From contig JASGHG010000001.1 of the NCBI GenBank assembly GCA_047602425.1, positions 192,001 through 256,000 of the forward strand: a stretch of DNA of 64,000 bases. Direction: 5' to 3'. How positions within the stretch are numbered: the stretch's first letter is position 1; each line of letters begins with the position of its first letter. Below are positions 16,798 through 41,059 of the stretch, in pieces. The notes under the pieces were generated by a model that worked only from the letters and a program-made list of their open reading frames with translations, did no database searches and was not told where the DNA came from. Source of the stretch: Nibricoccus sp. (GTDB lineage Bacteria; Verrucomicrobiota; Verrucomicrobiia; Opitutales; Opitutaceae). The position numbers and the translations under genes are program-made.

Positions 16798-17706
16798 CTA
16801 CTCCCCGTAATCCTCGGTCACCGTACGACTCAGCCCAATGAAGGTTTCCTCGGCCAGCGGCAGCCGGCGCCCGCGCAAATAAACCACCCCCCAGCGCCGC
16901 TTGAGCTTGCGACGGCCAAGAGGGAAAGAGATCAGCGCACCGCTGCGCAATTCTTCGCGCGCAATCCACGACGCAAGCACACCCGCACCCAGCCCGATTT
17001 TAACCAGCTCCTTGATGGCTTCCATGGAGCCGAGCTCGATGTAGTTGGTGAGCACGATTTTTTCTTCCCGAAAATATTCACTCACCAACCGAAAGGTATA
17101 ACTGTTTTTATTGTACAAAATGAGGGTCTCCTCCGCGATCGCACCGCGCGGCACGCCACCCGACTGTCCCCAAGGATGCAGCGGCGCCACCACGAACCGG
17201 AGCTCATCTTCAAAAAGCGGCACAAAATCGAATTCGTTGTCGCCCGCAGGCATGGGCATGATCGCGAGATCGATCTGGCCCGAACGCAACAATTCCAACT
17301 GCCGGCCATGGTCGCCGGGTTCGATTTTAATCACGCACTTCGGAAAGCTCTGCTTAAATTCGCGCAGCACCGTTGGTAATATATACTGGCACGCCGTCGT
17401 GCTCGCTCCGACACGCAACCGGCCGTGCCCCCAGTTCGTCAGCGTGTCGAGTCCCGCGCGCGCCGCTTCCATTTCGCGCAAAATTTTTTCCGTGTGCCGC
17501 AAAAACTGTTCGCCCGCCTGCGTGAGCAGCGCGCGTTTGCCCACGCGATCGAGCAGACGGCAGCCAACTTCCGTCTCCAAAGCCTTCATCGCGTGACTCA
17601 CCGCCGACTGCGTGAGAAACAAATCTTTGGCGGCCAAGGTAAAACTGCCGCGGCGTGCCACGGCTTCAAAGGCAAGCAACTGACGGCTGTCGAGGGTGTT
17701 TTTCAT
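16798..17706 (-). CDS. LysR family transcriptional regulator (CbbR/CmpR/CysL-like)
   Basis: GSFTLAAKDLFLTQSAVSHAMKALE HTH, LTQAGE, EAIKELVKIGLG; divergent from the nitrate operon. Confidence 0.9.
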   Translation of the reverse strand: MKNTLDSRQLLAFEAVARRGSFTLAAKDLFLTQSAVSHAMKALETEVGCRLLDRVGKRALLTQAGEQFLRHTEKILREMEAARAGLDTLTNWGHGRLRVGASTTACQYILPTVLREFKQSFPKCVIKIEPGDHGRQLELLRSGQIDLAIMPMPAGDNEFDFVPLFEDELRFVVAPLHPWGQSGGVPRGAIAEETLILYNKNSYTFRLVSEYFREEKIVLTNYIELGSMEAIKELVKIGLGAGVLASWIAREELRSGALISFPLGRRKLKRRWGVVYLRGRRLPLAEETFIGLSRTVTEDYGE

Positions 17707-17708
17707 GA

Positions 17709-17788
17709 ATGAGCGTCGTTCATTATCTATATGAAATGTTTGAAGAGCAGTAATCGCGCCAAAACGCATTTCTGGCATGCCGACGGCT
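17709..17788 (+). promoter_or_regulatory. ATGA-N7-TCAT LysR-type box (17709-17723) plus sigma54-like -24/-12 element (17773-17788)
   Basis: ATGAGCGTCGTTCAT; TGGCATGCCGACGGCT (GG-N10-GC); same arrangement at 24934 and 27944. Confidence 0.65.
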
Positions 17789-17808
17789 AAACGTGTTCGG
17801 CAAAACCA

Positions 17809-18882
17809 ATGGAAACCGCCACGTACAACAGCACCGCCAGCCAGAGCGCACGCACCTTGCGCGTCGGCTTCCTCGCTCTCAGCGACGCCGCGCCTTTCAT
17901 CGTCGCCGAGGAGCGCGGCCTCTTCGCCCGGCACGGGCTTCGCGTTCAGCTGAGCCGCGAAGTGGGTTGGGCAACGCTGCGCGATAAAATCATCTACGGT
18001 GAACTCGATGCTGCGCAGGCTCCCGCACCGATGCTTTGGTCCACGCGCCTCGGAATCGATTGCTCGCCCTGCCCCGTCATGACCAGCATGGTGCTCAGCC
18101 TGAACGGCAACGCCATTACTCTCTCTGAAAAACTCTGGCAGGCCGGTGTGCGCGACGCATCAACCTTGCGCGACGAAGCGCGCCGGCGCAGCGGTGAACG
18201 CAAGCTGACCTTCGGCGTTGTATTCAATTTCTCATCACACCACCTGCTCCTCCGCACCTGGCTTCGCACCGGCGGCATCAATCCCGATCGCGATGTCCGT
18301 TTCGTCGTCGTTCCCCCGGCCCAGATGTTCCGCAACCTCGCGGCTGGTACAATCGACGGTTACTGTGCCGGCGAGCCCTGGAATACATTGGCGGTGAGAG
18401 AGCAGGTCGGCTGGTGCCCGACCTGGTCAGCCTCGTTGCAGCCTGGACACATTGAAAAGGTTCTCATGGTGACGGAACGGTTTGCCACCAATCGCGCAAG
18501 CGAACACGCGGCCCTGGTCGCCGCTCTCGTTGAAGCCGCCGGTTGGTGCGACGAGCCCGCCAATCGGGATCCGCTCGCCCAGTTGCTTTCCCGCGCCGGT
18601 TACATCAACCAGTCCATGCGCATCATCACGCCCGCTCTCAGCGGCGTTTTCGATTGCGGCCACCATCGCAGCGAGACGGTGCCTGATTTCCTCGTATTTC
18701 ACAAAGGCAATGCCAACCAGCCCACCGTAGCCAAAGCCCAGCTGCTGCAGCAGGAATTGACCGAAGCGGGACTTCTTCCCGGCGGACCGGCAGCCAGCAC
18801 GCTTCCTGCGCTTCTTTTTCGCGAAGATCTCTACAACCACGCAACCCGCACCAATACATCCAATGAACTCGTCTCCCTCTGA
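17809..18882 (+). CDS. NrtA/CmpA-fold protein without signal peptide (NasS-like cytoplasmic nitrate sensor)
   Basis: GFLALSDAAP, GWATLRDK, VPPAQM, GYCAGEPWN, EKVL; no Sec/Tat signal. Confidence 0.75.
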   Translation: METATYNSTASQSARTLRVGFLALSDAAPFIVAEERGLFARHGLRVQLSREVGWATLRDKIIYGELDAAQAPAPMLWSTRLGIDCSPCPVMTSMVLSLNGNAITLSEKLWQAGVRDASTLRDEARRRSGERKLTFGVVFNFSSHHLLLRTWLRTGGINPDRDVRFVVVPPAQMFRNLAAGTIDGYCAGEPWNTLAVREQVGWCPTWSASLQPGHIEKVLMVTERFATNRASEHAALVAALVEAAGWCDEPANRDPLAQLLSRAGYINQSMRIITPALSGVFDCGHHRSETVPDFLVFHKGNANQPTVAKAQLLQQELTEAGLLPGGPAASTLPALLFREDLYNHATRTNTSNELVSL

Positions 18883-20152
18883 TCGCTCCGTTTCCCACCT
18901 GAACCGCCGGTCTTTTTTGACCAAAGGAGTTGCCGGTCTCGGCGCCGCCGCGCTTTGGTCGGCCCTCGGCAACAAGTCTTGGGCCTCCACGGCCGGCTCG
19001 GTTTCCGAGGCGCCCGAAACCACTGATATCAACTTCGGCATCATCGCGCTCACGGATTGTTCACCCATCGTCATCGCCCATGAAAAAGGCCTTTTCAAAA
19101 AGTACGGAATCAATTCCAAAATCACCAAGGGAGCCAATTGGGCGGCCATCCGCGACAACCTGTCAACTGGTTCGATTCAGGCCACCCACATGCTGATCGG
19201 CATGCCGCTCGCCTCGACCATGGGCTTGGCCGGTTCGCCTAAAAAACCGATGATCATTCCCTGGCTGCTCAATCGCAACGGCCAGGCCATCACGCTCAAG
19301 ACCGAGTGGAAGGGCAAGGTTGGTGCTGACCCGAAGGCCATCAAACCCTTCGTAGATCAGGCGAAATCGCTCGGCGAACCGCTCACTTTCGCCATGACCT
19401 TCCCTCCGGGCACACATGCCATGTGGATTCGCTACTACCTCGGCGCCGGCGGCATCAATCCCGACAAAGATGTCAGCCTCATCACCGTTCCGCCCGCCCA
19501 GATGGTGGCCAATATGAAAATCGGCAAAATGGATGGCTTTTGCGTCGGCGAACCGTGGAACGCCCGGGCAATTGCCGATGGTATCGGGTTCACCTCCGTC
19601 ACCACGCAGGATATGTGGAAGGATCATCCGGAAAAAGTCTGCGCTTTCACTGAGGAGTTCGCCGAGAAAAACCCGAAGACTGTCAAAGCCGTGCTGAAAG
19701 CCCTGCACGAAGCCAGCGTCTGGCTCGACGAAATGGATAATCGACCCGAACAGTGCGCCATCGTCTCAAAGGCCACGTATATCAATTGCGATCCCAAAAC
19801 GATCCTCGGCCGCCTCCAGGGTAACCTCGACTACGGCGACGGCCGCAAGGTGCAGGACGAATTCTACATGCACTTCAACAAGCGCAACTGCAACTATCCG
19901 CAGCCCAAGTACGCCAAATGGTTCCTCTCGCAGTATCGCCGCTGGGGCCTCGTCTCCGGCACGCCCGACTATGAGGGCGTCGCGAAACGGGTGATGCGCT
20001 CCGACATCTACGAAGAGGCTATGAAGGAAATCGGCGTCACCCATGGTGGACTCGATAACTCGCCGGAAACGTTGTTCGACGGTGCCACTTTCAATCCAGC
20101 CGAACCAGAGACTTTCGCCAAGAGCTTCGCCGTCCACAATCTGAAAGGTTGA
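18863..20152 (+). CDS. nrtA: Nitrate/nitrite ABC transporter substrate-binding protein (Tat-exported)
   Basis: RRSFL twin-arginine signal; IALTDCSPI, FAMTFPPGTH, GFCVGEPWN, DHPEKV. Confidence 0.85.
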   Translation: MNSSPSDRSVSHLNRRSFLTKGVAGLGAAALWSALGNKSWASTAGSVSEAPETTDINFGIIALTDCSPIVIAHEKGLFKKYGINSKITKGANWAAIRDNLSTGSIQATHMLIGMPLASTMGLAGSPKKPMIIPWLLNRNGQAITLKTEWKGKVGADPKAIKPFVDQAKSLGEPLTFAMTFPPGTHAMWIRYYLGAGGINPDKDVSLITVPPAQMVANMKIGKMDGFCVGEPWNARAIADGIGFTSVTTQDMWKDHPEKVCAFTEEFAEKNPKTVKAVLKALHEASVWLDEMDNRPEQCAIVSKATYINCDPKTILGRLQGNLDYGDGRKVQDEFYMHFNKRNCNYPQPKYAKWFLSQYRRWGLVSGTPDYEGVAKRVMRSDIYEEAMKEIGVTHGGLDNSPETLFDGATFNPAEPETFAKSFAVHNLKG

Positions 20153-20165
20153 CACGACGCCTGCC

Positions 20166-20426
20166 ATGAACCCTGGCCCGAAAAAGCTGCCAGCTTACCT
20201 GCGCCGACTGCTCCTCCCGGCAGTCTGGCGCAAGGCGGCGCCCATCGGGCTTTTCGTCGGCGTCATCCAGATTTGCGTCAACCAGGGCGATCACTGGCTT
20301 AAACACGAAATCACCGCCGCAGTTCTGCTAAAAACAATCCTGTGTCCTCTCATCAGCGTGGGAGTCGCCGTGGTTTCGGCCGCCGCCGCCCACCCTGCTG
20401 AAGAAAAATCACCTTCAAAATTATGA
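20166..20426 (+). CDS. nrtS: Small NrtS-like nitrate/nitrite transporter
   Basis: 86 aa, two TM helices, VG-xxx-VNQGD motif; inside the nrt operon. Confidence 0.6.
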   Translation: MNPGPKKLPAYLRRLLLPAVWRKAAPIGLFVGVIQICVNQGDHWLKHEITAAVLLKTILCPLISVGVAVVSAAAAHPAEEKSPSKL

Positions 20427-21403
20427 ATTCACTTAAACTCGACTGGCTCTTTCTGCCCCTGCTCGGGACGTTGCTCATTCTAGTTGCATGGCACGGTCTC
20501 GCCGGAAAAAAAGTCTACAAACTCGCCGGTACAATCGACGACATTCATGCAGCGATTTCCGGTCTGCCCGAGGGCGAAAAAACCTGGCCCGCGGTTCAGG
20601 CTGCGATTCAGAAAGGCGATATCGCTTCGATAAAAAAGCTCCCGAATGGTGCTCCGATTTGGGAGGCCATCTCCGGAAACTTTGAAGAGCGGCGCGTCGG
20701 TCTCATTCCCGATTTGCCGAACGTCATCGAAACCTGGCAGTCGAGCAAACCCTACATTGTCGATCCCTTCGCCAAACGCGGCGAAATGGATCAGGGCATT
20801 CTCCGCTTCACGTGGTATTCGCTCGTGTTGGTGGCAAAAGGTTATGCCATCGCCCTGATCGTCGGCGTGCCTCTCGGATTTTTTCTCGGGCTTTCCAAAA
20901 CCTTCACGAAAATGTTCGACCCGATCATCCAGGTTTTCCGTCCTGTCTCGCCGCTCGCCTGGCTGCCGCTCGGCTATGTGCTTTTCATGAGCACTGGCAA
21001 GGAAACGGGCACCTACGCCGCGCTCTTCACCATCGCGCTCTGCTCGATGTGGCCGACCGTGCTCAATACCGCCGTCGGCGTGCGCGCCGTGCCGCAGGAT
21101 TTTCTCAACGTCGGTCGCGTGCTGAAACTTTCGCGCACCAAGATGCTCTTCAAGATCCTCATTCCCGCCACGCTGCCCTACATGTTCACCGGTTTCCGCC
21201 TAAGTCTTGGCATTGCCTGGCTTGCCATTGTCGCCGCGGAAATGCTCACCGGCCGTCCCGGCGCGGGCGGATTTCTCTGGCAGGAATACAACGCCAACAT
21301 CTACGAGCACATTATCTTTTCGATCATCACCATTGGCGTCGTCGGCTTCATCCTCGATCGTCTGATGAGCGTGGTGGAAAAGAAATTCAAGTCAGCCCTG
21401 TGA
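20423..21403 (+). CDS. nrtB: Nitrate ABC transporter permease
   Basis: DPIIQVFRPVSPLAWLP, WPTVLNTAVGV, GIAWLAIVAAEM. Confidence 0.9.
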   Translation: MNSLKLDWLFLPLLGTLLILVAWHGLAGKKVYKLAGTIDDIHAAISGLPEGEKTWPAVQAAIQKGDIASIKKLPNGAPIWEAISGNFEERRVGLIPDLPNVIETWQSSKPYIVDPFAKRGEMDQGILRFTWYSLVLVAKGYAIALIVGVPLGFFLGLSKTFTKMFDPIIQVFRPVSPLAWLPLGYVLFMSTGKETGTYAALFTIALCSMWPTVLNTAVGVRAVPQDFLNVGRVLKLSRTKMLFKILIPATLPYMFTGFRLSLGIAWLAIVAAEMLTGRPGAGGFLWQEYNANIYEHIIFSIITIGVVGFILDRLMSVVEKKFKSAL

Positions 21404-21407
21404 CCAC

Positions 21408-22298
21408 ATGTCTTTTCTCGAACTAAAAAACATCTCCAAGTCGTTCGGCGGCGCGCGCGTCCTCGATAACGTCAATCTTTCCATCGAGGAAGGCGAGTTC
21501 GTCGCGATTGTCGGTTATTCCGGTTCGGGCAAAACCACGCTCGTCTCCCTCGTCGCCGGCCTTCTGCGGCCCGACACCGGCACCATCACGCTCGCTGGCA
21601 AACCCATCGATGGCCCGAGCCCGGAACGCGGCCTCGTTTTCCAGAACTATTCACTTCTACCCTGGCTCACGGTTCGGGAAAACATCGCCATCGCTGTCGA
21701 GTCCGTCTTTCCCGAAAAAACTGCCGACGAACGCCAGGCTCATGTCACCCGCTTCATCGAGATGGTCAAACTTGGCCATGCCGGGGATCGCCTGCCAAAG
21801 CAGCTTTCCGGCGGCATGCGTCAGCGTGTCGCCGTAGCACGCACGCTCGCCATCCAGCCGCGCATCTTGCTCCTCGACGAACCGCTCTCGGCCCTCGATG
21901 CACTCACTCGCGCCACCTTGCAGGACGAGATCACACAGATCCGTCGCACCGACAACACGACGATTTTGCTCATCACCAACTCTGTCGACGAAGCGCTCTT
22001 GCTCGCCGACCGGGTCATCGCCCTCACGCCCGGCCCCGGGGCAACCTTGGCCGAACCGTTTGTTGTCGACCTGCCGCGCCCACGTGATCGCAAAACTCTA
22101 AATCACGAGCCTGCCTACAAGGACCTCCGCGGCGCCATTACCGAGCAACTCCTTAGTTTCAACGCCGCCCGCAAAACCACGCTTACGAAAAAGCTCATTT
22201 TGCCCGACATCCTTCCCGAAGACCTCGACGCTCCCCGCGTCCACCGCCAGCCTCGCCGCCCGGGAGAAATCAAGGAAACGACCATCGCCTCCGTCTGA
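21408..22298 (+). CDS. nrtC: Nitrate ABC transporter ATP-binding subunit (H-loop His replaced by Asn)
   Basis: GYSGSGKTT, FQNYSLLPW, LSGGMRQR, LLDEP, ITNSVDEA. Confidence 0.85.
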   Translation: MSFLELKNISKSFGGARVLDNVNLSIEEGEFVAIVGYSGSGKTTLVSLVAGLLRPDTGTITLAGKPIDGPSPERGLVFQNYSLLPWLTVRENIAIAVESVFPEKTADERQAHVTRFIEMVKLGHAGDRLPKQLSGGMRQRVAVARTLAIQPRILLLDEPLSALDALTRATLQDEITQIRRTDNTTILLITNSVDEALLLADRVIALTPGPGATLAEPFVVDLPRPRDRKTLNHEPAYKDLRGAITEQLLSFNAARKTTLTKKLILPDILPEDLDAPRVHRQPRRPGEIKETTIASV

Positions 22299-22328
22299 CG
22301 CAACTACCAACAACCGCCAACTTCCACT

Positions 22329-23234
22329 ATGCGCCCGTTTCTCGAAATCTCCGCTCTCAACAAAGCCTTTCCCACGCCCAAGGGACCGCTCACAGTAGTG
22401 GAAAATTTCAACCTCCACGTGAACAAGGGCGAGTTCATCGCCTTGATCGGACATTCCGGTTGCGGCAAATCCACCGTGCTTTCGATGGTTGCCGGCCTCG
22501 CTGACGCGACCGAGGGAGGCATCATTCTTTCAAGCAAGGAAGTGACTGGCGCCGGACCCGATCGCGGCGTGGTTTTTCAGGCTCCGTGCCTGCTGCCATG
22601 GTATACAGCTTTTGAAAACGTCATGCTGGGCGTCGATCAGGTTTACTACACCGCCAGCCGCCTCGAACGCAGGCAGATCGCGGAATATTACCTCACAGTC
22701 GTCGGCCTCGGCGACGCGATGCACAAACGCCCCGCCGAGCTTTCGCAGGGTATGCGCCAGCGCTGCGGCATCGCCCGCGCCTTTGCGCTCCACCCAAAGA
22801 TGCTGCTCCTTGACGAACCATTCGGTATGCTCGATGCCTTAACCAAGATGGAATTACAGGACGTCCTTCTCGACCTTTGGCAGCGAGATCAGAAAACCGC
22901 GCTGATGGTCACACATGACGTTGACGAAGCCCTCTACCTGGCCGACCGCGTCGTCTGCATGACCGATGGCCCCAATGCCACCGTCGGCGAAATTCTTGAG
23001 GTGAAATTTCCCCGTCCGCGCTCCCGCAAGCAGCTCCTTGAGGATCCCGAGTACTATCGGCTTCGCGAACAGCTCATCGGTTTTCTCAACGAACGCTCTC
23101 ACCACCGGCCGGCTCAGCCTGCAACTCCGCCAGCCACACCACCGCCTACCAACAAAACCGGCTTCGTCAGCCGTCGCACGCGGGTCCTCGAAACCGCGTT
23201 CACCCGCTTTATTCTTCAACCGTTCAAAACCTGA
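22329..23234 (+). CDS. nrtD: Nitrate ABC transporter ATP-binding subunit
   Basis: [35 protein letters not shown]. Confidence 0.85.
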
Positions 23235-23294
23235 TCCTAGCGGCAAAATTAGCCGCACCTTGATTTGAATCATGTTTTTCGTTTCGGGCGCTTC

Positions 23295-23309
23295 ATGAAA
23301 GCGCCTCAT
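23295..23309. promoter_or_regulatory. Fourth ATGA-N7-TCAT box, upstream of the porin gene
   Basis: ATGAAAGCGCCTCAT; intergenic, same pattern as the other three boxes. Confidence 0.5.
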
Positions 23310-23356
23310 GGGTTCACCATGTCCGCACGCCTGCACTTCATACCAAACCAAACGCC

Positions 23357-24877
23357 ATGACATCACCGCACCGCCTCCTCGCATTCACCGTCGCGCTCTT
23401 AACCGCGCTTCCCGCCCTCAAGGCTCAGTATGCCCCTCCCCCGCCGCCGCGCCCATTTCCCGGCTTCGTCAACGAGGCCCTCCGCGCCAAGGATCCCTAC
23501 ATGGCCGCATGGGATTTCGGCGTGAATGTGCGTGCTCGTGAAGAGGTGAAGGAAAACGCCGGTTTTACCGACGTCGGCTCTAACTGGGATTTCTCCACCC
23601 GCCCACAGGATGACAACAATAACTCCTATCTGCTCACGCGCGTGATGCCCCGCATTGGCTATACCGGCAAATGGATCGCCGCCACCATCGAGGACCGCTC
23701 CAGTTATTCGTTCGACGACGAGCGTTACGTTCCCACCGCCGCCGGCCAGGGTCTCGCCGAGCGCGACGGCTCGATGGATTTGCATCAGGCGTTCGTTTTC
23801 ATCGGAAATCACAAGGTCTTTCCGGTCTCGCTCAAAGTCGGTCGTCAGGAACTCGTCTACGGCGACCAGCGCCTCGTCGGCCATTTCCGCTGGAACAACA
23901 ACGCCCGCACCTTCGACGCCATCAAACTCCGTTGGCAGAATAAATTCTTCGGCGTCGATATTTTCAGCGGCGGTCTGGTCTACAACAACCACCACAACCT
24001 CAACAAATCCAACTCGCAGGACCGTTTCTCCGGCGCCTACTTCAACTTTCCCACGCTTTCGACCAAGGATATCGTCGAAGCCTACTTCTACGCCCGCAAC
24101 GTGAGCCGCGGTATCGTCACCGACGATTGGTCCGGCGTCCCCGCACCTTTCCGTTTCCCCGCGCCGCAGGATCTCTACACCACAGGCCTTCGCTGGAAAT
24201 CCAAGCCGGGCTCTTATGGCGCATGGGACTACGGCGCGGAGTTAATGTACCAGTTCGGCAACCGCGCCGCGGTCTTCCCGGCGACCACGGTCGCCGCCGC
24301 CCGCACGGCTCCGCGCCTCGACCACACTGCCTACGCCGCCGTTCTGCAGGGTGGCTACACCTGGTCGGACAATAAAATGCAGCCGCGTTTGGGCGTATTG
24401 TACAGTTATGGATCAGGCGACAAGGACTCCACCGACACCAAGAGCGGCACGTTCCAGAATCTTTTCCCGACCAATCATCTCTTCTACGGCTACATGGATC
24501 TTTCCAGCCTGCAGAATATGCACGACCTCCGTTTTGCCTACACGTTCAAACCCATGCTCACTCTCAGCGTCGCCCTTGAAGGTCACCTCCAGTACCTCGC
24601 GGCCAATACCGATTATTGGTACAATGTCGCCGGCGTTCCGCGCAACGTGGCGGCTGGTGCCAACGGCAGCGGCAACGGCTACACGATCAATCCGAGTTAC
24701 AGCAAAAAACTCGGTCAGGAGATCGACCTCGTGGTCGGCTGGTCATTTTTGCCCTGCGCACAGGTCGAAATTGGCCTCAGCCGGTATTTCCGCGGCGAAT
24801 ACATCAAGCAGTCGCTGCGTTCAACTGGTTCAAAAGATGCCAGCTACGCGTACGTGCAGCTGACCGTAAATCTTTAA
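23357..24877 (+). CDS. Alginate-export-family outer-membrane porin
   Basis: Signal peptide; KVGRQELVYGDQRLVG, FDAIK, YSYGSGD, LFPTNHLFYGYMD motifs. Confidence 0.8.
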   Translation: MTSPHRLLAFTVALLTALPALKAQYAPPPPPRPFPGFVNEALRAKDPYMAAWDFGVNVRAREEVKENAGFTDVGSNWDFSTRPQDDNNNSYLLTRVMPRIGYTGKWIAATIEDRSSYSFDDERYVPTAAGQGLAERDGSMDLHQAFVFIGNHKVFPVSLKVGRQELVYGDQRLVGHFRWNNNARTFDAIKLRWQNKFFGVDIFSGGLVYNNHHNLNKSNSQDRFSGAYFNFPTLSTKDIVEAYFYARNVSRGIVTDDWSGVPAPFRFPAPQDLYTTGLRWKSKPGSYGAWDYGAELMYQFGNRAAVFPATTVAAARTAPRLDHTAYAAVLQGGYTWSDNKMQPRLGVLYSYGSGDKDSTDTKSGTFQNLFPTNHLFYGYMDLSSLQNMHDLRFAYTFKPMLTLSVALEGHLQYLAANTDYWYNVAGVPRNVAAGANGSGNGYTINPSYSKKLGQEIDLVVGWSFLPCAQVEIGLSRYFRGEYIKQSLRSTGSKDASYAYVQLTVNL

Positions 24878-24898
24878 GAGCGTTCGTTCATGGTCATG

Positions 24899-24932
24899 GC
24901 CGGTCGTCCTTTCGCGGGGCGACCGGCTTTTT
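24899..24932 (+). terminator. Intrinsic terminator after the porin gene
   Basis: GCCGGTCGTCC...GGGCGACCGGC stem followed by TTTTT. Confidence 0.75.
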
Positions 24933-24933
24933 C

Positions 24934-25012
24934 ATGAGCTGTTCTCATCGTTCGACTTAAAACTATTCAGTCTATTTTTCATCGAAGTCGGCCAGTTGGT
25001 ATGTCCGTTGCT
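24934..25012 (+). promoter_or_regulatory. ATGA-N7-TCAT box (24934-24948) plus sigma54-like element (24997-25012)
   Basis: ATGAGCTGTTCTCAT; TGGTATGTCCGTTGCT. Confidence 0.7.
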
Positions 25013-25031
25013 AATTATCCTGATCAATACG

Positions 25032-26237
25032 ATGAATATTGCTCAGCTAAAAAAATCCGGCCACTGGCCAACCCTCGCGACTTCTTTCCTCTATTTCGAT
25101 GTTAGCTTTATGGTGTGGACGCTGCTGGGCGCGCTTGGCGCACTCATCGCGCCCGCCCTCAAGCTCAACGCCGATCAGAAATTTCTCATGGTCGCCACGC
25201 CAATTCTGGCCGGCGCGTTTTTGCGCATCGCACTGAGCATGCTGGTCGATCGTATTGGGACAAAAACCACCGGCATCATCGCGCAGTTGATCGTCATGGC
25301 CGGTCTCGCTGTCGCCTGGCAGCTCGGCGTACACACGCTCAACCAGGCTTTACTGCTCGGCGTCGTTCTCGGTGTGGCCGGAGCCAGCTTCGCCGTCGCG
25401 CTTCCCCAGTCCGGCCGCTGGTATCCGCCGCACATGCAGGGCGTCGTGCTCGGGCTGGCCGGCGCGGGCAACATCGGCGTTGTGATCGACCATCTTGCCG
25501 CTCCGCGTATCGCGGCGGTTTGGGGATGGCAGGCGGTTTTTGGCGCGGCACTTATTCCGCTCGCCCTGGCGTTCGTGCTCTACGTGATTTTCTCCAAGGA
25601 ACCTCCCGGCGAATACAAAAAGAAAAAGCTCTCCGACTATGGGAAACTCCTGCGCGAAAAAGATGCCCATTGGTTCTGCTTTTTCTACACCATCAGCTTC
25701 GGCGGCTTCGTCGGTCTCGCCACCGCGTTCGCGATCTATTTCAGCGATCAGTTTCACCTCAAGCCGGTCCACGCCGGTGAGATGGCGGCGTTTTGCACGC
25801 TCATCGGGGCCATCGGCCGACCCATGGGCGGCGCACTCGCCGACAAGCTCGGTGGCATCCGCTCGCTCGGCGTCTTCTACAGCGTTGCGGCCGTGGCGAT
25901 GGCTCTCGCGGCCCTCGCCGACAATCTGTGGATCTGCGGAGCAGGTTTCTTCATCGCTTCCGGCGCGTTTGGCATGTGCAACGGTTCGGTTTTTCAGCTC
26001 CTTCCGCAGCGTTTTGCAAAAGACATCTCCGTCATGACCGGCCTCGTCGGTTGCGGCGGCGGAATTGGCGGTTTTCTCCTTGGTCGGCTGTTCGGCGTTT
26101 CCAAGGAATATTTTGGCGGCTACACCCCCGGCATTCTCTTCTTCGCCGGGCTCTGCCTGTTGGCGCTCACCGGCCTCGGCGCCGTCAAACGTCGCTGGCG
26201 CACGACCTGGGGTGCCACGGCCGCTGCTAAAATTTGA
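25032..26237 (+). CDS. narK: NarK/NasA-family MFS nitrate/nitrite transporter
   Basis: GHWPTL..FLYFD, GVAGASFAVALP nitrate signature, FGMCNGSVFQL, about 12 TM. Confidence 0.9.
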   Translation: MNIAQLKKSGHWPTLATSFLYFDVSFMVWTLLGALGALIAPALKLNADQKFLMVATPILAGAFLRIALSMLVDRIGTKTTGIIAQLIVMAGLAVAWQLGVHTLNQALLLGVVLGVAGASFAVALPQSGRWYPPHMQGVVLGLAGAGNIGVVIDHLAAPRIAAVWGWQAVFGAALIPLALAFVLYVIFSKEPPGEYKKKKLSDYGKLLREKDAHWFCFFYTISFGGFVGLATAFAIYFSDQFHLKPVHAGEMAAFCTLIGAIGRPMGGALADKLGGIRSLGVFYSVAAVAMALAALADNLWICGAGFFIASGAFGMCNGSVFQLLPQRFAKDISVMTGLVGCGGGIGGFLLGRLFGVSKEYFGGYTPGILFFAGLCLLALTGLGAVKRRWRTTWGATAAAKI

Positions 26238-26293
26238 CCATTCGCATCGCCGAGCTCGCTTCCTCGGCTCGGTTCGGCCAGCGTGCGACTTCC

Positions 26294-27943
26294 ATGAAGC
26301 TCCAGGTCACTTCCCACGGCCTGCCGCGCAACCCCAAGGCTGTCTCCGACGACGCCACCTGCGTGCGGCAGCGCAGCAACCTCGCTGTCGCGGCTCTGGC
26401 CGATGGCATCGGTTCCAGCGAACAGGGTGGCGAGGCCGCCCGTCGTGCGGTGGCGATGCTAACCGATTACTATCTGGCAAAACCTCAGACTTGGGGACCG
26501 CATCGCGCCCTTTCTGAATTTGTCTCACAGATCAACCGCGTGTTTCATCAGGAATCGCAAGCCCGCCATGGCTCTCCCGAGTTGGTCTGCACACTCAGCG
26601 CGGTCGCACTCGCAGGAAACTGGTTGCACGGTTTCAACGTCGGCGATTCGCCGGTTTACCTCTGGCGAAAAGATCGTCTCATCACCCTGTCGCAGAGCCA
26701 CGCGCTTGCTCACACCGGCATGGAGCATGTTCTCGCCCGCGCCGTCGGACTCGAAGCCGCGGTCCAGCCGCATTTTTTCGAAACCACGATCGATGCCGGC
26801 GACGTCATTTTGCTTTGCTCCGACGGCGTCAGCAACGTGCTTCCACCCGAAACACTCGCCACGCTCCTGTCCCGCCGCACCAGCGCCCGCAGCATCGTTC
26901 TGGCCGCGCGTGACGCGACCGAAAAAAAAGAGGAAGCCCCCGATGACGCTTCGGCCATCGTGATCGATGTGGTTTCTCACAGTTGGAGCGCCACGACCGA
27001 CAATCGCGCTCTGGAAATCATTCCTCCGCCCAAGGCCGGTGATGCCATCGACGAATACCGCCTTCTTCGCCCGCTCCAGGAAGGCGCTCCGGTTTGGCTC
27101 GCCGAAAAATCCGATGGCACCCGCTTTGTATTGAAATTTCCACCACAGGAAGCCCGCGATGACGAACTTCGCCGCGAGGGCTTTGTGCGCGAAATGTGGC
27201 AGGCCACGCGCATCGATTCGCCTGATTTTGTCCGCGCTTTCGTTCCCGAGGCTGGAACATTGCGCTATTATGTCATGGAGTTCGTCGACGCTCCGACGCT
27301 TCGCGAATCGCTCCGCATCGCGCCTTTCACCGTGGAAGACACGGTCGCGCTCGGTCATTTTCTCCTCCGCGCCGCGCAATTTCTCCTCAGCAGTGACCAC
27401 GCACACGGCGACATCAAACCCGACAATATTCTCGTGCTTCGGTCAGGCAAAGGCACCCGATTTCAATTGCTCGATCTCGGAAGCGCCGCTGAAGTTTTTT
27501 CCGTTACGTCGCGCGCCGGCACGCCGAGTTATCTTGCCCCCGAACGCTTCGGCGGCGCCGCGCTTTCCGAACTCACCGAAATCTACGCCATCGGCGTCAC
27601 GCTCTACGAAACGCTAACCCGCGCCTATCCATTTGGCGAAATCGAACGTTTCCAAACGCCACGCTTCGACTCCACACCGAAGCGTCCCACGAAACTAAAT
27701 CCGGCCATTCCCACGTGGTTGGAATCGATCATTCTTCGCGCGATTTCGCCTGAAATCGAAAGCCGCTACCAAAGTTTTTCCGAAATGGCCTATGAGCTTT
27801 CGCATCCGGAAAAAGTCACGCCTTTCTATCGCAAAAATGCGCCGCTGATTGAGCGCAACCCTCTGTTATTCTATAAGCTCTTAAGCCTTGGCTTCTTTCT
27901 GAGCACACTGGCACTACTCTATCTCCTTTTGATGCGAAAGTAG
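26294..27943 (+). CDS. Bifunctional PP2C phosphatase / Ser-Thr protein kinase with C-terminal TM anchor
   Basis: ALADGIG, NVGDS, LCSDGV, DD (PP2C); VLK, HGDIKPDN, DLG, YLAPE (kinase). Confidence 0.85.
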   Translation: MKLQVTSHGLPRNPKAVSDDATCVRQRSNLAVAALADGIGSSEQGGEAARRAVAMLTDYYLAKPQTWGPHRALSEFVSQINRVFHQESQARHGSPELVCTLSAVALAGNWLHGFNVGDSPVYLWRKDRLITLSQSHALAHTGMEHVLARAVGLEAAVQPHFFETTIDAGDVILLCSDGVSNVLPPETLATLLSRRTSARSIVLAARDATEKKEEAPDDASAIVIDVVSHSWSATTDNRALEIIPPPKAGDAIDEYRLLRPLQEGAPVWLAEKSDGTRFVLKFPPQEARDDELRREGFVREMWQATRIDSPDFVRAFVPEAGTLRYYVMEFVDAPTLRESLRIAPFTVEDTVALGHFLLRAAQFLLSSDHAHGDIKPDNILVLRSGKGTRFQLLDLGSAAEVFSVTSRAGTPSYLAPERFGGAALSELTEIYAIGVTLYETLTRAYPFGEIERFQTPRFDSTPKRPTKLNPAIPTWLESIILRAISPEIESRYQSFSEMAYELSHPEKVTPFYRKNAPLIERNPLLFYKLLSLGFFLSTLALLYLLLMRK

Positions 27944-28022
27944 ATGAGCGTTATTCATCGTTCATCTTAAATTAATTCAGGTTTTTTCTCGTCCACCTTC
28001 CGCCGGTGGCATCGCGATTGCT
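27944..28022 (+). promoter_or_regulatory. ATGA-N7-TCAT box (27944-27958) plus sigma54 element (28007-28022)
   Basis: ATGAGCGTTATTCAT; TGGCATCGCGATTGCT, close to the TGGCAC-N5-TTGC consensus. Confidence 0.75.
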
Positions 28023-28033
28023 AAAACAGTGGC

Positions 28034-29860
28034 GTGCCAAACGTCACTGAACTCATTTCCGCCGCAACGCCTTCCGCGCCTTTCACGCCCGCGCAGAAAG
28101 AATACCTGCAGGGCTTTATGGCCGGCGCCATGGCTTCCGGTGCCTTTCCTTTTGTCGGTAACAACGCTTCCGGTCAGCTGACCGCAAGCCCCGAGACATC
28201 CGCCACCGGCAACCTCGCCGCGCCCGCTGAAACCAGCGTCTACGGCACGCCGCTCGAAGACCTCTGCAAGGAGGAGCGTTGGAAGTACGAGGAAAATCCT
28301 CTCGATTCCTGGGAGCGTCTGCTCACACACGCGCAGGAAGACAAGACCCCCGATCCCGAGCACAACTACCGCTTCCGCACCTTCGGTCTTTTCTGGGTCG
28401 CACCCGCGCAGGATGGCTTCATGGTCCGCCTCCGCATTCCCGCCGGCGAACTCTCTGCCCACCAGTTGCGCGGCCTCGCTTCTATCGCCGACGACCTCGG
28501 CGGCGGCTACTCGCATATCACCACGCGCGCCAACCTCCAGATGCGCGAATTCAAGCCCCGGGCAATCGTCGAAATGCTCACGCGCGTACAGGACCTCGGC
28601 CTCACCGCCCGCGGTTCCGGCGCCGACAACATCCGCAACATCACTGCCTCGCCCGATTCCGGTTTTGCCCCTAACGAGTTGATCGACGTCCGCCCGCACG
28701 CCCGCGCCCTCCACCATTACATCATCAACAACCGCGACCTCTACGGCCTGCCGCGCAAATTCAACGTCGCTTTCGACAATGGCTCCCTCCTCTCCGCCGC
28801 AGCCGACACCAACGACATTGGCTTCTTCGCTGTCCGCGTGACAGCAAAGTCCCTCTCCGCCGCTTCAACTTCCAACTTAAAGTTTCCACTAGCTGAACCC
28901 GGAATTTATTTCCGGGTTCACCTCGGCGGCATCACCGGCCACTGCGATTTCGCCCGCGACACCGGCCTGCTCGTCAAACCTTCCGAGGCCGTCGCCGTCG
29001 CCGCCGCCATGATCCGCGTCTTCCGCGACCACGGCAACCGAACCGATCGCAAGAAGGCACGTCTCAAATACCTCCTCGAAGAATGGGGTTTCGAAAAGTT
29101 TATCGAGGAAACCGGCAAACGCCTCGCTTTCCCGCTGGTTCGCCTTCCGCTTGAGGCCTGCGAAGCTCGGCCCCCGGTCGAAAAACACGGCTGGCTCGGC
29201 GCGCGCCGCCAGGCCCAGCCGGGCATGTACTCCGTCGGCATCGGCGTTCCGGTCGGCAAACTCTCGACGAAACAGATGCGCGCCATCGCCGAACTCGCCG
29301 AGCGTTACGGTACCGGCGAAATCCGTCTCACTGTGTGGCAGAGTCTCATCATTCCGCATATTGCCCAGTCCGCCGTCGATGCCGTTTGCCGCGCTGCAAA
29401 AAAAATGGGCTGTTACACCGAGGCCTCGCTTGCCTCCGGCGGCATCATTGCCTGCACGGGCAGTGCCGGTTGCAAATATGGCCAGGCCGACACCAAAGCT
29501 AGCGCCGTCGCCTTAATCAAACATCTCACCGACAAATTTCCCGAACTCGACAACGCGCTCAACATTCACTTCACCGGCTGCCCCAACTCCTGCGCCCAGC
29601 ACTACTGCGGCGACATCGGTTTCATCGGCAATAAACTCGCCGACGGCTCGCCCGGCTATTGCGTCATCCTCGGCGGCGGCATGGATCAGGAACAGGGCAT
29701 CGGCCGCGAAATTTTCCGCGGGTTGACTGTTAGCGAAATCACTCCGCTGGTCGACCGCATCATATCCGGCTACCTCGCCCGCCGCGAGCGTGCCGAAACC
29801 TTTGTCCAGTGGACTCGTCGCCACTCCGTCAAAGAACTCCAGGAATTCTTCTCCTCCTGA
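28034..29860 (+). CDS. nirA: NirA-type sirohaem nitrite reductase
   Basis: HITTRANLQ, LPRKFN, CTGSAGC and GCPNSC sirohaem/4Fe-4S ligands; GTG start. Confidence 0.85.
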   Translation: MPNVTELISAATPSAPFTPAQKEYLQGFMAGAMASGAFPFVGNNASGQLTASPETSATGNLAAPAETSVYGTPLEDLCKEERWKYEENPLDSWERLLTHAQEDKTPDPEHNYRFRTFGLFWVAPAQDGFMVRLRIPAGELSAHQLRGLASIADDLGGGYSHITTRANLQMREFKPRAIVEMLTRVQDLGLTARGSGADNIRNITASPDSGFAPNELIDVRPHARALHHYIINNRDLYGLPRKFNVAFDNGSLLSAAADTNDIGFFAVRVTAKSLSAASTSNLKFPLAEPGIYFRVHLGGITGHCDFARDTGLLVKPSEAVAVAAAMIRVFRDHGNRTDRKKARLKYLLEEWGFEKFIEETGKRLAFPLVRLPLEACEARPPVEKHGWLGARRQAQPGMYSVGIGVPVGKLSTKQMRAIAELAERYGTGEIRLTVWQSLIIPHIAQSAVDAVCRAAKKMGCYTEASLASGGIIACTGSAGCKYGQADTKASAVALIKHLTDKFPELDNALNIHFTGCPNSCAQHYCGDIGFIGNKLADGSPGYCVILGGGMDQEQGIGREIFRGLTVSEITPLVDRIISGYLARRERAETFVQWTRRHSVKELQEFFSS

Positions 29861-37456: not shown

Positions 37457-38329
37457 TCAATTGGTGATAGTCGTTTTCCAATCCGCCGCAGGCAATGGAG
37501 GCGGAAGGCCGCTCGCAAGCCGGCTGTCGAGCTCGGCGTTGACCGCATGACATTGTGTGCAGCTCTGCCGGTTCGGATGAGAGGTGCGCAACGCAGCCGT
37601 TCCGCCCGGACCGTGACAGCTCATGCAGTTGTCGCGCATCCAAGTCGTATGCGGCATCGTTGGCGGAGCACCCAAGTAGGCGCGCTTGCCTGGACCGGAC
37701 TGTTCTTTGCCGACAAACTTGTTGCCCTCGGAAAGTGCCTCATGCCGCGCCACCCAAGTACTCGTCGGTCCGACGGAGGAAACATGGCACTGAATGCAAT
37801 TTGTGTACGCCGGATGACTGACCAGCGGCACCTGCTGATTACCGATTTTTGTTGGTTTACCATGGCACTCCATACACGCGGCCGGGGTGAGTTGGTCGAG
37901 TGGGTGCGGCGCAATGGGCGGCGCACCGTCGTACTGGCGGCGGGCGGTGCGCGTGTTTCTGAGTCGGACCAGATCGGTCGTCGAGAGCACGGCCGGGATG
38001 TATTGCGCCTCTGTTTTGGGGCGCGTGAGTGTCGCCAAGTGCACGACCCAGTCCTTGTTCGGGCGGAGCGTGCCGTCCTTAAGATCCGCGTAACGTGGCG
38101 CCACCGGCACGTCCACTTCGGGCAGGGTTGCTTCAGTCGCAACCGGAGTCGCTTTCGCCGTGGATTGCAGCATGTCGGCGGTCGCAAGTTCGGTCTGACG
38201 CAAGCCCATGAAGAATCCGCTCAAGCCGAGCGTCAGCGAGATCAGACTGGCCACAACGGCCAGTTTGCGTCCCGTGCCGGGTTTTGAAGTTTCGGGTTTT
38301 TCGGACATGGCGGTTTCAGACTCAGCCAT
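37457..38329 (-). CDS. napB: NapB-like cytochrome c, tandem-duplicated (4 CxxCH)
   Basis: N-terminal TM; YDGAPPIAPH-CMECH-CIQCH then YLGAPPTMPH-CMSCH-CTQCH; directly after napA. Confidence 0.75.
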   Translation of the reverse strand: MAESETAMSEKPETSKPGTGRKLAVVASLISLTLGLSGFFMGLRQTELATADMLQSTAKATPVATEATLPEVDVPVAPRYADLKDGTLRPNKDWVVHLATLTRPKTEAQYIPAVLSTTDLVRLRNTRTARRQYDGAPPIAPHPLDQLTPAACMECHGKPTKIGNQQVPLVSHPAYTNCIQCHVSSVGPTSTWVARHEALSEGNKFVGKEQSGPGKRAYLGAPPTMPHTTWMRDNCMSCHGPGGTAALRTSHPNRQSCTQCHAVNAELDSRLASGLPPPLPAADWKTTITN

Positions 38330-40757
38330 GAGGAACTGTCTTCTCTGGAACCAGCATGGCGGCCGACTTGCGGTAAACTTTCACGGCGCACTTTTTGTAG
38401 TCTGGTTCTTTGGAGATCGGACATGGTTCACCCAGAGTGACGTCGTTGATCAGCAGGCGCTCATCGAAGAACGGCACAAACACCGTGCCGCGCGGCGGCT
38501 TGGCGCGGCCATTGATCCAGACGGGCAATTCGATCTTGCCGCGACGCGATTCGATCACGGCCATGTCGCCGTTTCCGAGTCCGGCGGCAGCAGCGTCCTG
38601 TGGGTTCATTTCCACATAGGCGTTGGGCATGGCGTTGCGCAACTGGGGCACGCGCATCGTCAACGTGCCGGTGTGCCAATGTTCAAGTACGCGCCCGGTG
38701 CAAAGCCACGTTGGGAAATTCGGATCGGGTTCTTCCGCAGCCGGCTCATAGGGACAAAACCAAATGAGCGCTTTGTCGTCCTTGGTCACCGAATGATAGA
38801 ATTGGATTCCCTTGCCCTTGGCCACAAAGGGGTCGGTCCCTTCGGTGAAACGGAACTTGGTTTCATTCCACGAACCATCCGCCCCCTGCACCACCGGCCA
38901 GCGCAAACCGCGGGCCTTCGCGAGCACGTCGTACGGCGCAAGATGCTTGTGCTTGTAGAAGGAGAAAAGACGGTATTCCTCGTAGAGCGCCTTGTCGACG
39001 TTCACGTCGTAGTAGTGCGAAAAATCCCAAGCCGGCACTTCCGCGCCTTTATCATCTTTGACGGTGAAGATAAAATTGCCGTCGCGATCCTTCATGCCGG
39101 GATGGCCCAGTTCGAAGAGTCGGCGCGCCACCGCGATCGTGATCCACGCATCGGGACGGGCCTGGCCGGGAGGTTCAACCTGTTTGAACCATTGCTGCGT
39201 GCGGCGTTCCGAATTTCCGTAGATGCCGTTTTTTTCCACCCACAGCGCGGCCGGCAAAACGAGATCGGCCAGTTCGGTCGTCGCCGTCGGATAGACTTCC
39301 GAAACGATGAGAAATTTGTCCTCCAAGCCCTGCTTCGCTTTAAAAAGTTTGTGGAGATTCGGGAGCGATTGCCCGGGATTTGTCACCTGAACGATGACCG
39401 TATGGATGTCGCCGCCTTTGTCGGTCGGCGTGCAGAATTTTTCGAACAATTGCACCGTATGATAACCGGGCTTCGGATTGATGCGGCCTTCCGGAAGTTT
39501 CCAGATTTCCTCCGATTCCTTGCGGTGCTCCGCGTTGGCAACAAGACGTCCGCCGGGAAGAAAATGGCACATCGTGCCCACTTCGCGCGCCGTACCGCAG
39601 GCAGACGGTTGCCCCGTGAGCGATGTCGGGGCGTCGCCCGGCCGGCCAAAATGGCCGCTGAGCAAATGAATCGAGTGTACCAGGCGGTTGATCGCCGTGC
39701 CCCGCGTATGCTGGTTCATGCCCATGCACCAAAGGCTGGTGATGCGAATGTCGCGCCTGGCGAAAAGTTCGCCCAACATGCGAATCTTCGCGGCGGAAAC
39801 GCCGGAAATTTTTTCCACAAACTCCGGCGTGTATTCCTCGACCGCCTTCCGATATTCGTCGAACGAAATTGGCTTGCCGAGCAGATCGAGCGGTTTGTTG
39901 TCGCCGCGGAAATTGCAGTATTTTTCGACAAAGGCTTTGTCCCACGCGTCGTTTTTCAGGAGCAGGTGCGCAATGCCATTCGCGATCGCCATGTCACTCT
40001 GCGGACGAAATTCCAGGTACTCGTCTGCAAACTCCGTCGAGCGCGTGCGTCGCGTGCCGATATCGATGATTTGTACCTTCTGCCCTCTGGTTAGGCGATC
40101 GATGATGCGTGAAAACAACACCGGATGCATCTCGGCTGGATTGTTGCCCCACAGAATGATCACGTCCGCCGCATCGAGGTCGTCGTAACAACCGGCCGGT
40201 TCATCCACGCCGTAAACCGAAAGATAACCCGTGACCGCCGAAGCCATGCAAAGGCGCGCATTTGGTTCAATATGATTGTTAGCCAAGCCACCCTTCATGA
40301 ATTTCTGCGCCGCATAACCCTCCGGAATCGTCCACTGGCCGCTGCCGTAAAAGGCGAAGCCTTTCGGATCCTTCAGCACGCGTTTCGCGATGGTGTCGAT
40401 GGCCTCCTCCCACGAAATTGGCTCTAGCTGACCGTTGCGGCGCAACATCGGCGTGGTCAGGCGATCTTTGCCGTAAAGGATGCCACCGACGTGGTAGCCC
40501 TTCACGCAGAGAAGGCCCTTGTTCACCTCCGCGAGCTGCTCGCCCTGAATTGCGACAACACGACCGTCCTTCACGCCTACGCGCACGTGGCAGCCCGTGC
40601 CGCAGAAACGGCAAGGGGCCTTGTCCCACTTGATCCCATCGGGCGTAGTGGTAGCGGGAGCGGAAATACTTTCAACAGCGCCGAGACGCTGGGCGATCAC
40701 CGCGGTGGCGGCGGCCATGGCGGTGTTACGAAGAAATTCGCGTCGATCCATATTCAT
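38322..40757 (-). CDS. napA: Periplasmic nitrate reductase catalytic subunit
   Basis: RREFL Tat signal, WDKAPCRFCGTGC, GSGQWT, NARLCMASAV, SLTGQPSACGTAREVG, ISKEPDYKKCAV. Confidence 0.95.
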   Translation of the reverse strand: MNMDRREFLRNTAMAAATAVIAQRLGAVESISAPATTTPDGIKWDKAPCRFCGTGCHVRVGVKDGRVVAIQGEQLAEVNKGLLCVKGYHVGGILYGKDRLTTPMLRRNGQLEPISWEEAIDTIAKRVLKDPKGFAFYGSGQWTIPEGYAAQKFMKGGLANNHIEPNARLCMASAVTGYLSVYGVDEPAGCYDDLDAADVIILWGNNPAEMHPVLFSRIIDRLTRGQKVQIIDIGTRRTRSTEFADEYLEFRPQSDMAIANGIAHLLLKNDAWDKAFVEKYCNFRGDNKPLDLLGKPISFDEYRKAVEEYTPEFVEKISGVSAAKIRMLGELFARRDIRITSLWCMGMNQHTRGTAINRLVHSIHLLSGHFGRPGDAPTSLTGQPSACGTAREVGTMCHFLPGGRLVANAEHRKESEEIWKLPEGRINPKPGYHTVQLFEKFCTPTDKGGDIHTVIVQVTNPGQSLPNLHKLFKAKQGLEDKFLIVSEVYPTATTELADLVLPAALWVEKNGIYGNSERRTQQWFKQVEPPGQARPDAWITIAVARRLFELGHPGMKDRDGNFIFTVKDDKGAEVPAWDFSHYYDVNVDKALYEEYRLFSFYKHKHLAPYDVLAKARGLRWPVVQGADGSWNETKFRFTEGTDPFVAKGKGIQFYHSVTKDDKALIWFCPYEPAAEEPDPNFPTWLCTGRVLEHWHTGTLTMRVPQLRNAMPNAYVEMNPQDAAAAGLGNGDMAVIESRRGKIELPVWINGRAKPPRGTVFVPFFDERLLINDVTLGEPCPISKEPDYKKCAVKVYRKSAAMLVPEKTVPHG

Positions 40758-41059
40758 TTTAAAGGGGTCTCTTGAGAAAAATCTCCAGAACATGTTTCCG
40801 CCGCTGCCTCCGGGACAACCTCAACAAAGGTCACATCGACAAAGGCCACACCCGGCAGCGTTTCCAGCCAGGCATGCACTTCGCGAGGGGAACCAGTTTC
40901 AACCACCACGGGCAGCCAGGGACCAAACGCTTCGCCGACCTCAATCTCCGGGCGTGATCGCAAAGCCTCATATACCTCCTCCTGCAATTGAAGCTCATCG
41001 CGCATACGGATCACCAAACTGACAACGACAGGGGTCTGGGGTGTTTCCAACGGGGTCAT
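40754..41059 (-). CDS. napD: NapD-like chaperone
   Basis: 101 aa ferredoxin-like pattern (SLVI...IEV...VVVET...LETLPGV); ATGA overlap with napA. Confidence 0.6.
   Translation of the reverse strand: MTPLETPQTPVVVSLVIRMRDELQLQEEVYEALRSRPEIEVGEAFGPWLPVVVETGSPREVHAWLETLPGVAFVDVTFVEVVPEAAAETCSGDFSQETPLK

Follow-up and report, generated by a model that had tools for sequence, protein, structure and literature searches.

Paired LysR-type boxes in fixed helical phase with sigma54-type promoter motifs in the nitrate assimilation cluster of a Nibricoccus genome

Background

The closest described counterparts of the promoter element considered here, a LysR-type box at a fixed distance before a sigma54-type motif, are the NtcB/NtcA arrangement of cyanobacteria, the AtzR system of Pseudomonas sp. 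ADP, the NasS-NasT pair of Paracoccus denitrificans and the auxiliary factors of other sigma54 promoters. The element occurs in three copies in a nitrate assimilation (nas) cluster of Nibricoccus sp. (Verrucomicrobiota, Opitutaceae), within a stretch of 64,000 nucleotides (GenBank assembly GCA_047602425.1, contig JASGHG010000001.1, positions 192,001 to 256,000 of the forward strand) that is called the window and whose numbering is used below. Statements on published systems refer to the parts of the cited papers that were covered.

NtcB belongs to the LysR-type transcriptional regulators (LTTRs) and binds as a tetramer to ATGC-N7-GCAT-N7-ATGC-N7-GCAT, with a box from -100 to -64 centred at -82; it acts via the alpha subunit of RNA polymerase (RNAP), and a 5-bp shift abolishes activation (10.1101/2022.10.10.511513). 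The arrangement in the window resembles that of NtcB and NtcA at the cyanobacterial nirA promoter (PnirA) in its tandem palindromes 7 bp apart, its nitrate assimilation genes, its strict helical phase and its probable use of a global nitrogen activator. However, the NtcB/NtcA promoter has a sigma70-family core and DNA-bound NtcA at -41.5, whereas here the core is of the -24/-12 type and no conserved -41.5 element is found in 19 promoters internal to nas clusters. The centres also differ, lying at about -71 and -61 here, and the LysR of the window is only distantly related to NtcB (E 4e-22 for the NtcB structure 8h3v, versus 9e-41 for the best PDB match, 5y2v). No sensor-protein partner of NtcB is described in the covered parts of that paper.

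AtzR, encoded at atzR/atzDEF, represses its own NtrC-activated sigma54 promoter, which is independent of an upstream activating sequence (UAS), from a shared site (PMC5263251), and the lysR side of site 1 is comparable. The promoter that AtzR activates has been described as sigma70-dependent (10.1101/736355), while both operons of the region have been stated to be sigma54-dependent (PMC6834077); if the latter is right, AtzR is a precedent for activation by an LTTR at sigma54. Unlike in the AtzR system, the forward sigma54 motifs here recur at a fixed phase at internal promoters that have no divergent gene. In Paracoccus denitrificans, NasS holds NasT, an ANTAR-domain RNA-binding antiterminator, until nitrate or nitrite binds (PMC3795266). 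The NasS-like protein of the window would likewise be a soluble NrtA-family sensor predicted to restrain a positive regulator, but here no ANTAR was found, and the predicted partner, an LTTR, binds DNA. Auxiliary factors of sigma54 promoters include ArgR at Escherichia coli astC and CRP. Integration host factor (IHF) is another (PMC4486848). All three resemble the LysR considered here as non-AAA+ DNA-binding proteins that modulate a sigma54 promoter from about -40 to -90; they help or hinder an enhancer-bound activator, whereas the LTTR here appears to be a specificity factor with no enhancer in evidence.

No published description of this layout, or of an LTTR bound by a NasS-like sensor, was found in the literature searched, and the word 'LysR' is absent from the main text of a sigma54 regulon survey that covers Opitutia (PMC12316311). 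On balance it is judged probable that LysR, likely bound as a tetramer, co-activates sigma54 polymerase by contact, that a distant NtrC-like ATPase opens the promoters without an enhancer, and that the NasS-like protein restrains LysR until nitrate or nitrite is present.

Composite sites in the nas cluster

Each of the three sites consists of the box ATGA-N7-TCAT followed by TGG-N10-GC(T) (Table 1). A reading of this DNA made without database searches (below, the sequence-only reading) had reported these sites with offsets from box end to TGG of 50, 49 and 49; the coordinates bear this out, the values being coordinate differences that correspond to 49, 48 and 48 intervening bases at sites 1, 2 and 3. 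The pattern ATGA-N7-TCAT-N45..55-TGG-N10-GC has three matches in the 5,158,924-base genome, exactly these sites; the form ATGAGC-N5-TCAT has five. Sites 1-3 also come first genome-wide (38.8, 36.8 and 32.9 bits, with the next score at 23.7) under box-anchored weight matrices whose training set was limited to 43 composites, drawn from 29 of 40 loci of relatives, and a matrix scan yields no fourth composite in the genome. Sigma54 motifs are present before amtB, glnII, cynS and nifA of the same genome, where no phased box was found.

In a composite alignment of the relatives, a second and weaker T-N11-A site is centred 22 bp downstream of the first box. The spacer words CTTAAA and ATTCAG, which had been singled out as common to sites 2 and 3, are real, but they are the two ends of this second site, which site 1 has as well. 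The resulting palindrome-N7-palindrome layout places two LysR sites between about -89 and -53 (taking the T of TGG as -26). A T-N11-A palindrome with a weaker second site and a divergent LTTR gene is what LTTR promoters have, and a conserved GG-N10-GC (-24/-12) motif upstream of genes is what sigma54 promoters have. The three sites are conserved composites, in which paired LysR-type boxes stand in fixed helical phase before sigma54 -24/-12 motifs. The units that had been placed downstream of them are also borne out, being headed by a NasS-like NMT1_2 protein, a NarK-type transporter of the major facilitator superfamily (MFS) and NirA.

A fourth ATGA-N7-TCAT, at 23295, was considered as a composite and rejected; no sigma54 motif stands at the required distance from it, and it lies inside an inverted repeat. 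Elsewhere in the genome, a sequence on the minus strand that nearly matches the LysR box overlaps the sigma54 motif of the second amtB (G000:C1:430112-430130).

Conservation of the spacing

Pairing 129 boxes with 146 sigma54-like motifs within 150 bp, in 41 regions (40 loci of relatives and the window), gives 59 pairs with a bimodal spacing: 37 lie at 48-50 bp, nine at 38-39 bp and 13 are scattered. The two preferred spacings, which together account for 46 of the 59 pairs, differ by one helical turn. A whole-genome pattern search in 38 relatives returns 31 matches at 48-49 in 21 genomes, against none for a reversed-pattern control, and 11 matches at spacings of 20-47, eight of them at 38-39. 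All of 20 internal nas promoters retain the spacing (and none has a reverse sigma54 motif), and the sequence of the spacer varies while its length is constant, also before non-homologous genes. The loss of box or spacing in orthologues that had been named as grounds for refutation was, in these comparisons, not what was seen; both are kept, including before non-homologous genes. Helical phasing of this kind fits contact with polymerase better than looping.

The same arrangement is found in material outside the training set. From 80 lysR loci in a metagenome set, 73 have enough upstream DNA; a divergent nasS is present in 59 of these, a forward sigma54 motif in 62 and a box at 48-50 in 59. By comparison, 24 glnII promoters used as controls all carry the sigma54 motif, and in none (0/24) does the best box fall at a composite spacing. 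Four of the 24 (L108, L112, L115 and L116) have strong box-like palindromes 57, 25, 100 and 103 bp before the sigma54 motif. A GTDB scan gives at least 123 stretches with the composite. Among the 80 that are listed, 49 have titles read here as Verrucomicrobiota: 36 of these composites stand before homologues of cluster genes, three before a formate/nitrite transporter-like gene (one confirmed by Pfam) and three divergently from lysR, while seven have no assigned gene. None of the other 31 listed stretches precedes a homologue of the cluster genes.

Some single occurrences are of note. A record with a Piscirickettsiaceae title (L209:1501-1580) has the composite before a NirB-like oxidoreductase and downstream of a probable nitrate transporter; the second LysR site there scores poorly, so the composite may be a matter of chance. 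In genome G153 (L150) the composite precedes a cyanase gene identified by Pfam, and in G267 (L079) a gene that looks cyanase-like by eye belongs to a cluster headed by a second lysR-nasS pair; given these cyanase links, lysR-nasS paralogues may sense cyanate. The Nibricoccus genome also encodes a 91-amino-acid (aa) LysR paralogue consisting of the helix-turn-helix (HTH) alone (59% over 86 aa; G000:C1:4190182-4190454, minus strand; L090:7183-7455). A sigma54-like motif precedes its gene, and an ATGAGC-N5-TCAT box ends 13 bp ahead of that motif; a 75% identical 91-aa copy in G099 has the sigma54-like motif and no box. Such a paralogue could be a feedback competitor for the boxes.

The sigma54 nature of the promoters

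The genome contains one rpoN, a point on which the sequence-only reading had asked for a check, and its product has all three of the activator-interacting, core-binding and DNA-binding domains by Pfam. Downstream of the boxes, no columns of the 19 internal promoters are better conserved than TGGCAC and GCT. A sigma54 transcript is expected to start about 11-12 nt after the -24/-12 motif, and in 46 composites in-frame start codons rise sharply 11-12 nt past the motif (15 candidates, versus three in the preceding 22 nt). The nirA GTG lies 11 nt after the motif in the window (28007-28036) and in L049, L051 and L053; this suggests leaderless mRNAs from sigma54 promoters, and the nirA mRNA of the window is likely one of them.

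That these are ordinary sigma70 LysR promoters, with GG-N10-GC a coincidence or a relic, would agree with the usual action of LTTRs with sigma70 (PMC4486848). It is hardly credible in view of the conserved columns, of start codons that set in sharply 11 nt after the motif and of the count of sigma70-type sites between 17500 and 28200, which is zero against 2.6 expected; no sigma70 -35/-10 pair was found beside the second LysR site.

The box-bearing promoters are the less uniform ones at -14. T is present there in 10 of 26 nasS promoters and 11 of 20 internal promoters (21 of 46 box-bearing promoters), versus 24 of 24 glnII promoters; in the window only the site 1 motif is non-consensus at this position. 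Weaker conservation at -14 fits a need for recruitment of polymerase. Elsewhere in the genome, strong sigma54 motifs also precede flagellar genes, several genes for secreted proteins and one CXXC gene, which we take to be McsA-like.

At site 1, a sigma54 motif that the sequence-only reading had missed points on the minus strand toward lysR. Back-to-back sigma54 motifs are separated by 10-13 bp in 19 of the 41 regions and by 9-12 bp in 47 of the 73 metagenome loci. The predicted start of the lysR-side promoter falls inside the second LysR site, where bound LysR would cover it and repress lysR. Since the two motifs in the window are only 11 bp apart, two polymerases may also exclude each other.

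The LysR protein and its NasS-like partner

The best PDB matches of the NasS-like protein are the C-terminal regulatory domains of NrtC/CmpC (E 1e-59). It lacks the leader of about 35 aa found in the adjoining NrtA and, by its sequence, would be a soluble sensor of the NrtA family, encoded at the start of the nas cluster. At thresholds chosen for this work, LysR and the NasS-like protein are each found in 39 of 301 genomes of the phylum, 38 of them shared. ANTAR, the domain of NasT, is found in one of 38 relatives versus three of four proteobacterial controls; in the Nibricoccus genome there is no hit, in a search whose control was also silent.

A complex predicted for two LysR effector domains and the NasS-like protein scores 0.80, versus 0.28 for the best of three controls. 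Of 157 solved pairs 116 reach the score mark that was used, as do 2 of 215 mismatched ones; these counts are only roughly valid for this fold. The runs agree in at least 87% of contacts, with a predicted local distance difference test score (pLDDT) for the partner of at least 91; no PDB entry is common to the sequence searches with LysR and with the NasS-like protein. The predicted interface joins LysR 112-122 and 282-299 to NasS 52-59 and 166-182, which lie, on the reading of the fold adopted here, on both sides of the ligand cleft, so the contact could respond to ligand. On the LysR side, R115, E116 and P122 are the same in 36 of 36 sequences. The predicted complex supports, short of demonstrating, binding of the NasS-like protein to the LysR effector domain, a probable partnership that is absent from the sequence-only reading.

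A LysR orthologue in genome G270 bears on this. It is 72% identical, nasS is absent from its locus, and no NasS match was found in that genome by the phylum search. The conserved interface residues are kept there at 0.54, versus 0.96 elsewhere, while seven nasS-bearing orthologues of similar identity stand at 1.00. Two distant LysR copies without an adjacent nasS follow the same trend (0.38 versus 0.71 and 0.46 versus 0.67). In G270 a box nonetheless stands 49 bp ahead of a sigma54 motif, and this retention of the box despite loss of nasS and of the interface fits a NasS that is an inhibitor and a LysR that is an activator. N2-fixing cells of Methylacidiphilum SolV show a rise from 28 to 117 reads per kilobase per million (RPKM) for the gene whose number adjoins that of a lysR annotated 'cbbR', but no rise for the lysR itself, which has been suggested to be linked to nitrate genes (PMC3404531). 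Judging by gene order, the two would be orthologues of the lysR and NasS-like pair.

The same orthologue matters for the opposite sign of control. LysR could be a phased repressor or gate, its apo-form bending the DNA or blocking access of the ATPase until nitrate, via the NasS-like protein or directly, relieves it. Phasing suits any contact, inhibitory ones included, LTTR repression of a UAS-less sigma54 promoter is known from AtzR (PMC5263251), and the -12 elements of sites 2 and 3 are consensus. This is nevertheless unlikely: at internal promoters the boxes lie at -89 to -53, upstream of the -24/-12 motif, box-bearing promoters are on average weaker than glnII promoters, and in G270 a repressor relieved by NasS would be locked on by the loss of nasS and interface.

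The NasS-like protein might also have another target. LysR would then co-activate but sense a small effector of its own, nitrite or 2-oxoglutarate, and the NasS-like protein would be a detached NrtC regulatory domain that controls the Nrt transporter. The PDB matches to the regulatory domains of NrtC/CmpC agree with this, as do the shortness of the NrtC in the window (296 aa) and the persistence of the G270 regulon without nasS. The LysR itself is nearest to NdhR-type regulators, and NdhR binds 2-oxoglutarate. As the whole account this is quite unlikely, since lysR and nasS are paired with no nrt transporter within 20 kb in loci such as L050, L052, L053, L054, L060, L064, L070 and L071, the predicted complex passes its controls, and the interface decays when nasS is lost. 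A transporter-directed NasS and co-activation by a NasS-restrained LysR can, however, both hold.

The activator

That no AAA+ enhancer-binding protein is encoded in the window, as had been stated, is correct: there are 12 strong hits to PF00158, the enhancer-binding-type ATPase domain, in the genome and none of them lies there. A comparison of activator groups in this genome and five chosen relatives, based on a quick tree only, leaves two groups common to all six, and G228 (98% complete) has these two only. The candidate activator (G000:87952-89517), of receiver-AAA+ type, represents one of these two groups; it gives its best score to ntrC and has matches in 28 of 30 genomes; it is an orphan gene that does not lie beside ntrB or glnA. 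Its HTH appears altered or lost, by eye, in 11 of 33 rows, and in three of three orthologues picked as truncated (G012, G237 and G039), two of them from genomes that keep the composite, HTH_8 is absent by Pfam. The HTH of orthologues of this protein has been lost in several lineages (L319, L314 and L282).

No dyad, palindrome or 6-mer above shuffles was found up- or downstream of the 20 internal nas promoters, although a degenerate site in coding DNA could escape such a search. Site 2 abuts a terminator-like hairpin and site 3 abuts the stop codon of the kinase gene, so intergenic room for an enhancer is absent. The word GGCAAG upstream of glnII promoters was considered as an enhancer and rejected; it is enriched, but its distance varies and it could be read as the -35 of a divergent gene.

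These results divide the earlier proposal. Co-control of sigma54 promoters by LysR is favoured by the presence of rpoN, by activators encoded elsewhere, by the kept spacing and by the lack of sigma70 sites. Gating of a distant, DNA-bound NtrC, as it had been worded, is at odds with the lack of a shared upstream motif at the 20 internal promoters and with the missing HTH in all three truncated orthologues. The same two observations would suit positive control by tethering, in which the LysR-DNA complex replaces the enhancer and docks an NtrC-like hexamer beside sigma54, and the position of the box suits a nearby activator. This is nonetheless decidedly unlikely, since glnII promoters carry sigma54 motifs with no box at composite spacings, so that a tether is not generally needed, and NtcB, the nearest studied relative, contacts RNAP alpha (10.1101/2022.10.10.511513).

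Proposed mechanism

For the contact of LysR with polymerase preferred above, the following course is proposed. Under nitrogen limitation, an NtrC-like ATPase would open any sigma54 promoter on which polymerase is held well. For polymerase to be recruited or stabilised, the nas promoters would need LysR, bound along one helix face, and the NasS-like protein would keep LysR inactive until nitrate or nitrite binds. The choice of the sigma54 promoters that fire is likely made by LysR, a role usually held by a distant enhancer. From the comparisons above we infer DNA binding by LysR, the start sites, positive control, contact with polymerase, the identity of the activator and the direction of the nitrate switch. 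The weakest link is activation from solution by G000:87952-89517, which may still work like NtrC.

Several observations weigh against this mechanism. The compared genomes are kin and the counts are not independent; what is informative is the length kept despite a varying spacer and before non-homologous genes. The box is found in none of five family-f11 genomes that keep lysR-nasS, and it is absent at the nasS promoter in several relatives (for example L052, L062, L063, L072 and L077). Sites 2 and 3 carry consensus TTGCT, so promoter weakness does not explain them. Conservation of the LysR interface is only slightly higher than that of the rest of the domain (0.67 versus 0.60), and the interface residues of NasS are largely general ligand-cleft motifs of the family, shared with NrtA. 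The interface-decay test in G270 is one case, and in 14 metagenome loci without an adjacent nasS, which may lie elsewhere, the interface has hardly decayed (0.90 versus 0.92). As for the candidate activator, its ntrC score of 485 bits is below the TIGR01818 cut-off of 558.6, 22 of the 33 rows keep a conserved HTH, and nothing ties the protein directly to nitrogen.

A widely conserved, helix-phased layout of LTTR and sigma54 would break two rules, that LTTRs act with sigma70 and that sigma54 specificity comes from an enhancer-bound AAA+ protein, and would show how a single global activator can serve many sigma54 promoters, each with an inducer of its own. If a nitrate sensor docks on an LTTR, NasS-like proteins would have another output beside antitermination. 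The more general proposition, that Verrucomicrobiota have enhancer-free sigma54 promoters at which an LTTR tetramer is the specificity device, recruiting polymerase or tethering a DNA-independent AAA+ protein and itself switched by a nitrate-sensor protein and not by a small molecule, is put forward tentatively, as somewhat short of probable. The motif itself allows the nitrate, nitrite and cyanate regulon to be read from Verrucomicrobiota genomes.

Features of the cluster

The cluster comprises lysR (minus strand) and the genes for the NasS-like NMT1_2 protein, nrtABCD, a porin, narK, a PP2C-kinase fusion, nirA, a cysJ-like flavoprotein, a dmsBC-like gene and nasA. The features around the three sites are collected in Table 1.

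Table 1. Features at and around sites 1-3, in window coordinates
Feature	Position	Strand	Basis or remark
lysR, 302-aa LysR-type regulator (CbbR/NdhR-like branch)	16798..17706	-	PF00126 + PF03466
Site 1 distal LysR box (like a recognition binding site, RBS), ATGA-N7-TCAT	17709..17723	.	pattern + matrix
Site 1 proximal LysR site (like an activation binding site, ABS), covers predicted lysR promoter start ~17735	17731..17745	.	
Divergent sigma54 -24/-12 motif pointing into lysR	17746..17761	-	11 bp back-to-back from forward motif
Site 1 forward sigma54 motif, non-consensus at -14, predicted start ~17799	17773..17788	+	
NasS-like protein, NrtA family, 357 aa, predicted LysR partner	17809..18882	+	PF13379 (NMT1_2)
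Terminator-like hairpin ending directly at site 2	24898..24933	+	13-bp stem plus T run
Site 2 distal LysR box	24934..24948	.	
Site 2 proximal LysR site, contains CTTAAA and ATTCAG	24956..24970	.	
Site 2 sigma54 motif, consensus -12, predicted start ~25023	24997..25012	+	
narK-type MFS transporter	25032..26237	+	
PP2C-kinase fusion after narK	26234..27943		
Site 3 distal LysR box, directly after kinase stop codon	27944..27958	.	
Site 3 proximal LysR site	27966..27980	.	
Site 3 sigma54 motif, consensus -12, predicted start ~28033	28007..28022	+	
nirA, first gene of nirA-cysJ-like-dmsBC-like-nasA unit (to 35483)	28034..29860	+	NF007126 over cut-off

NarK is 84% identical to a Lacunisphaera record, and the nearest titled records are from Opitutaceae. 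Just downstream of the assimilatory cluster, on the opposite strand, lies a gene for a napA-like periplasmic nitrate reductase (38322-40793, minus strand).

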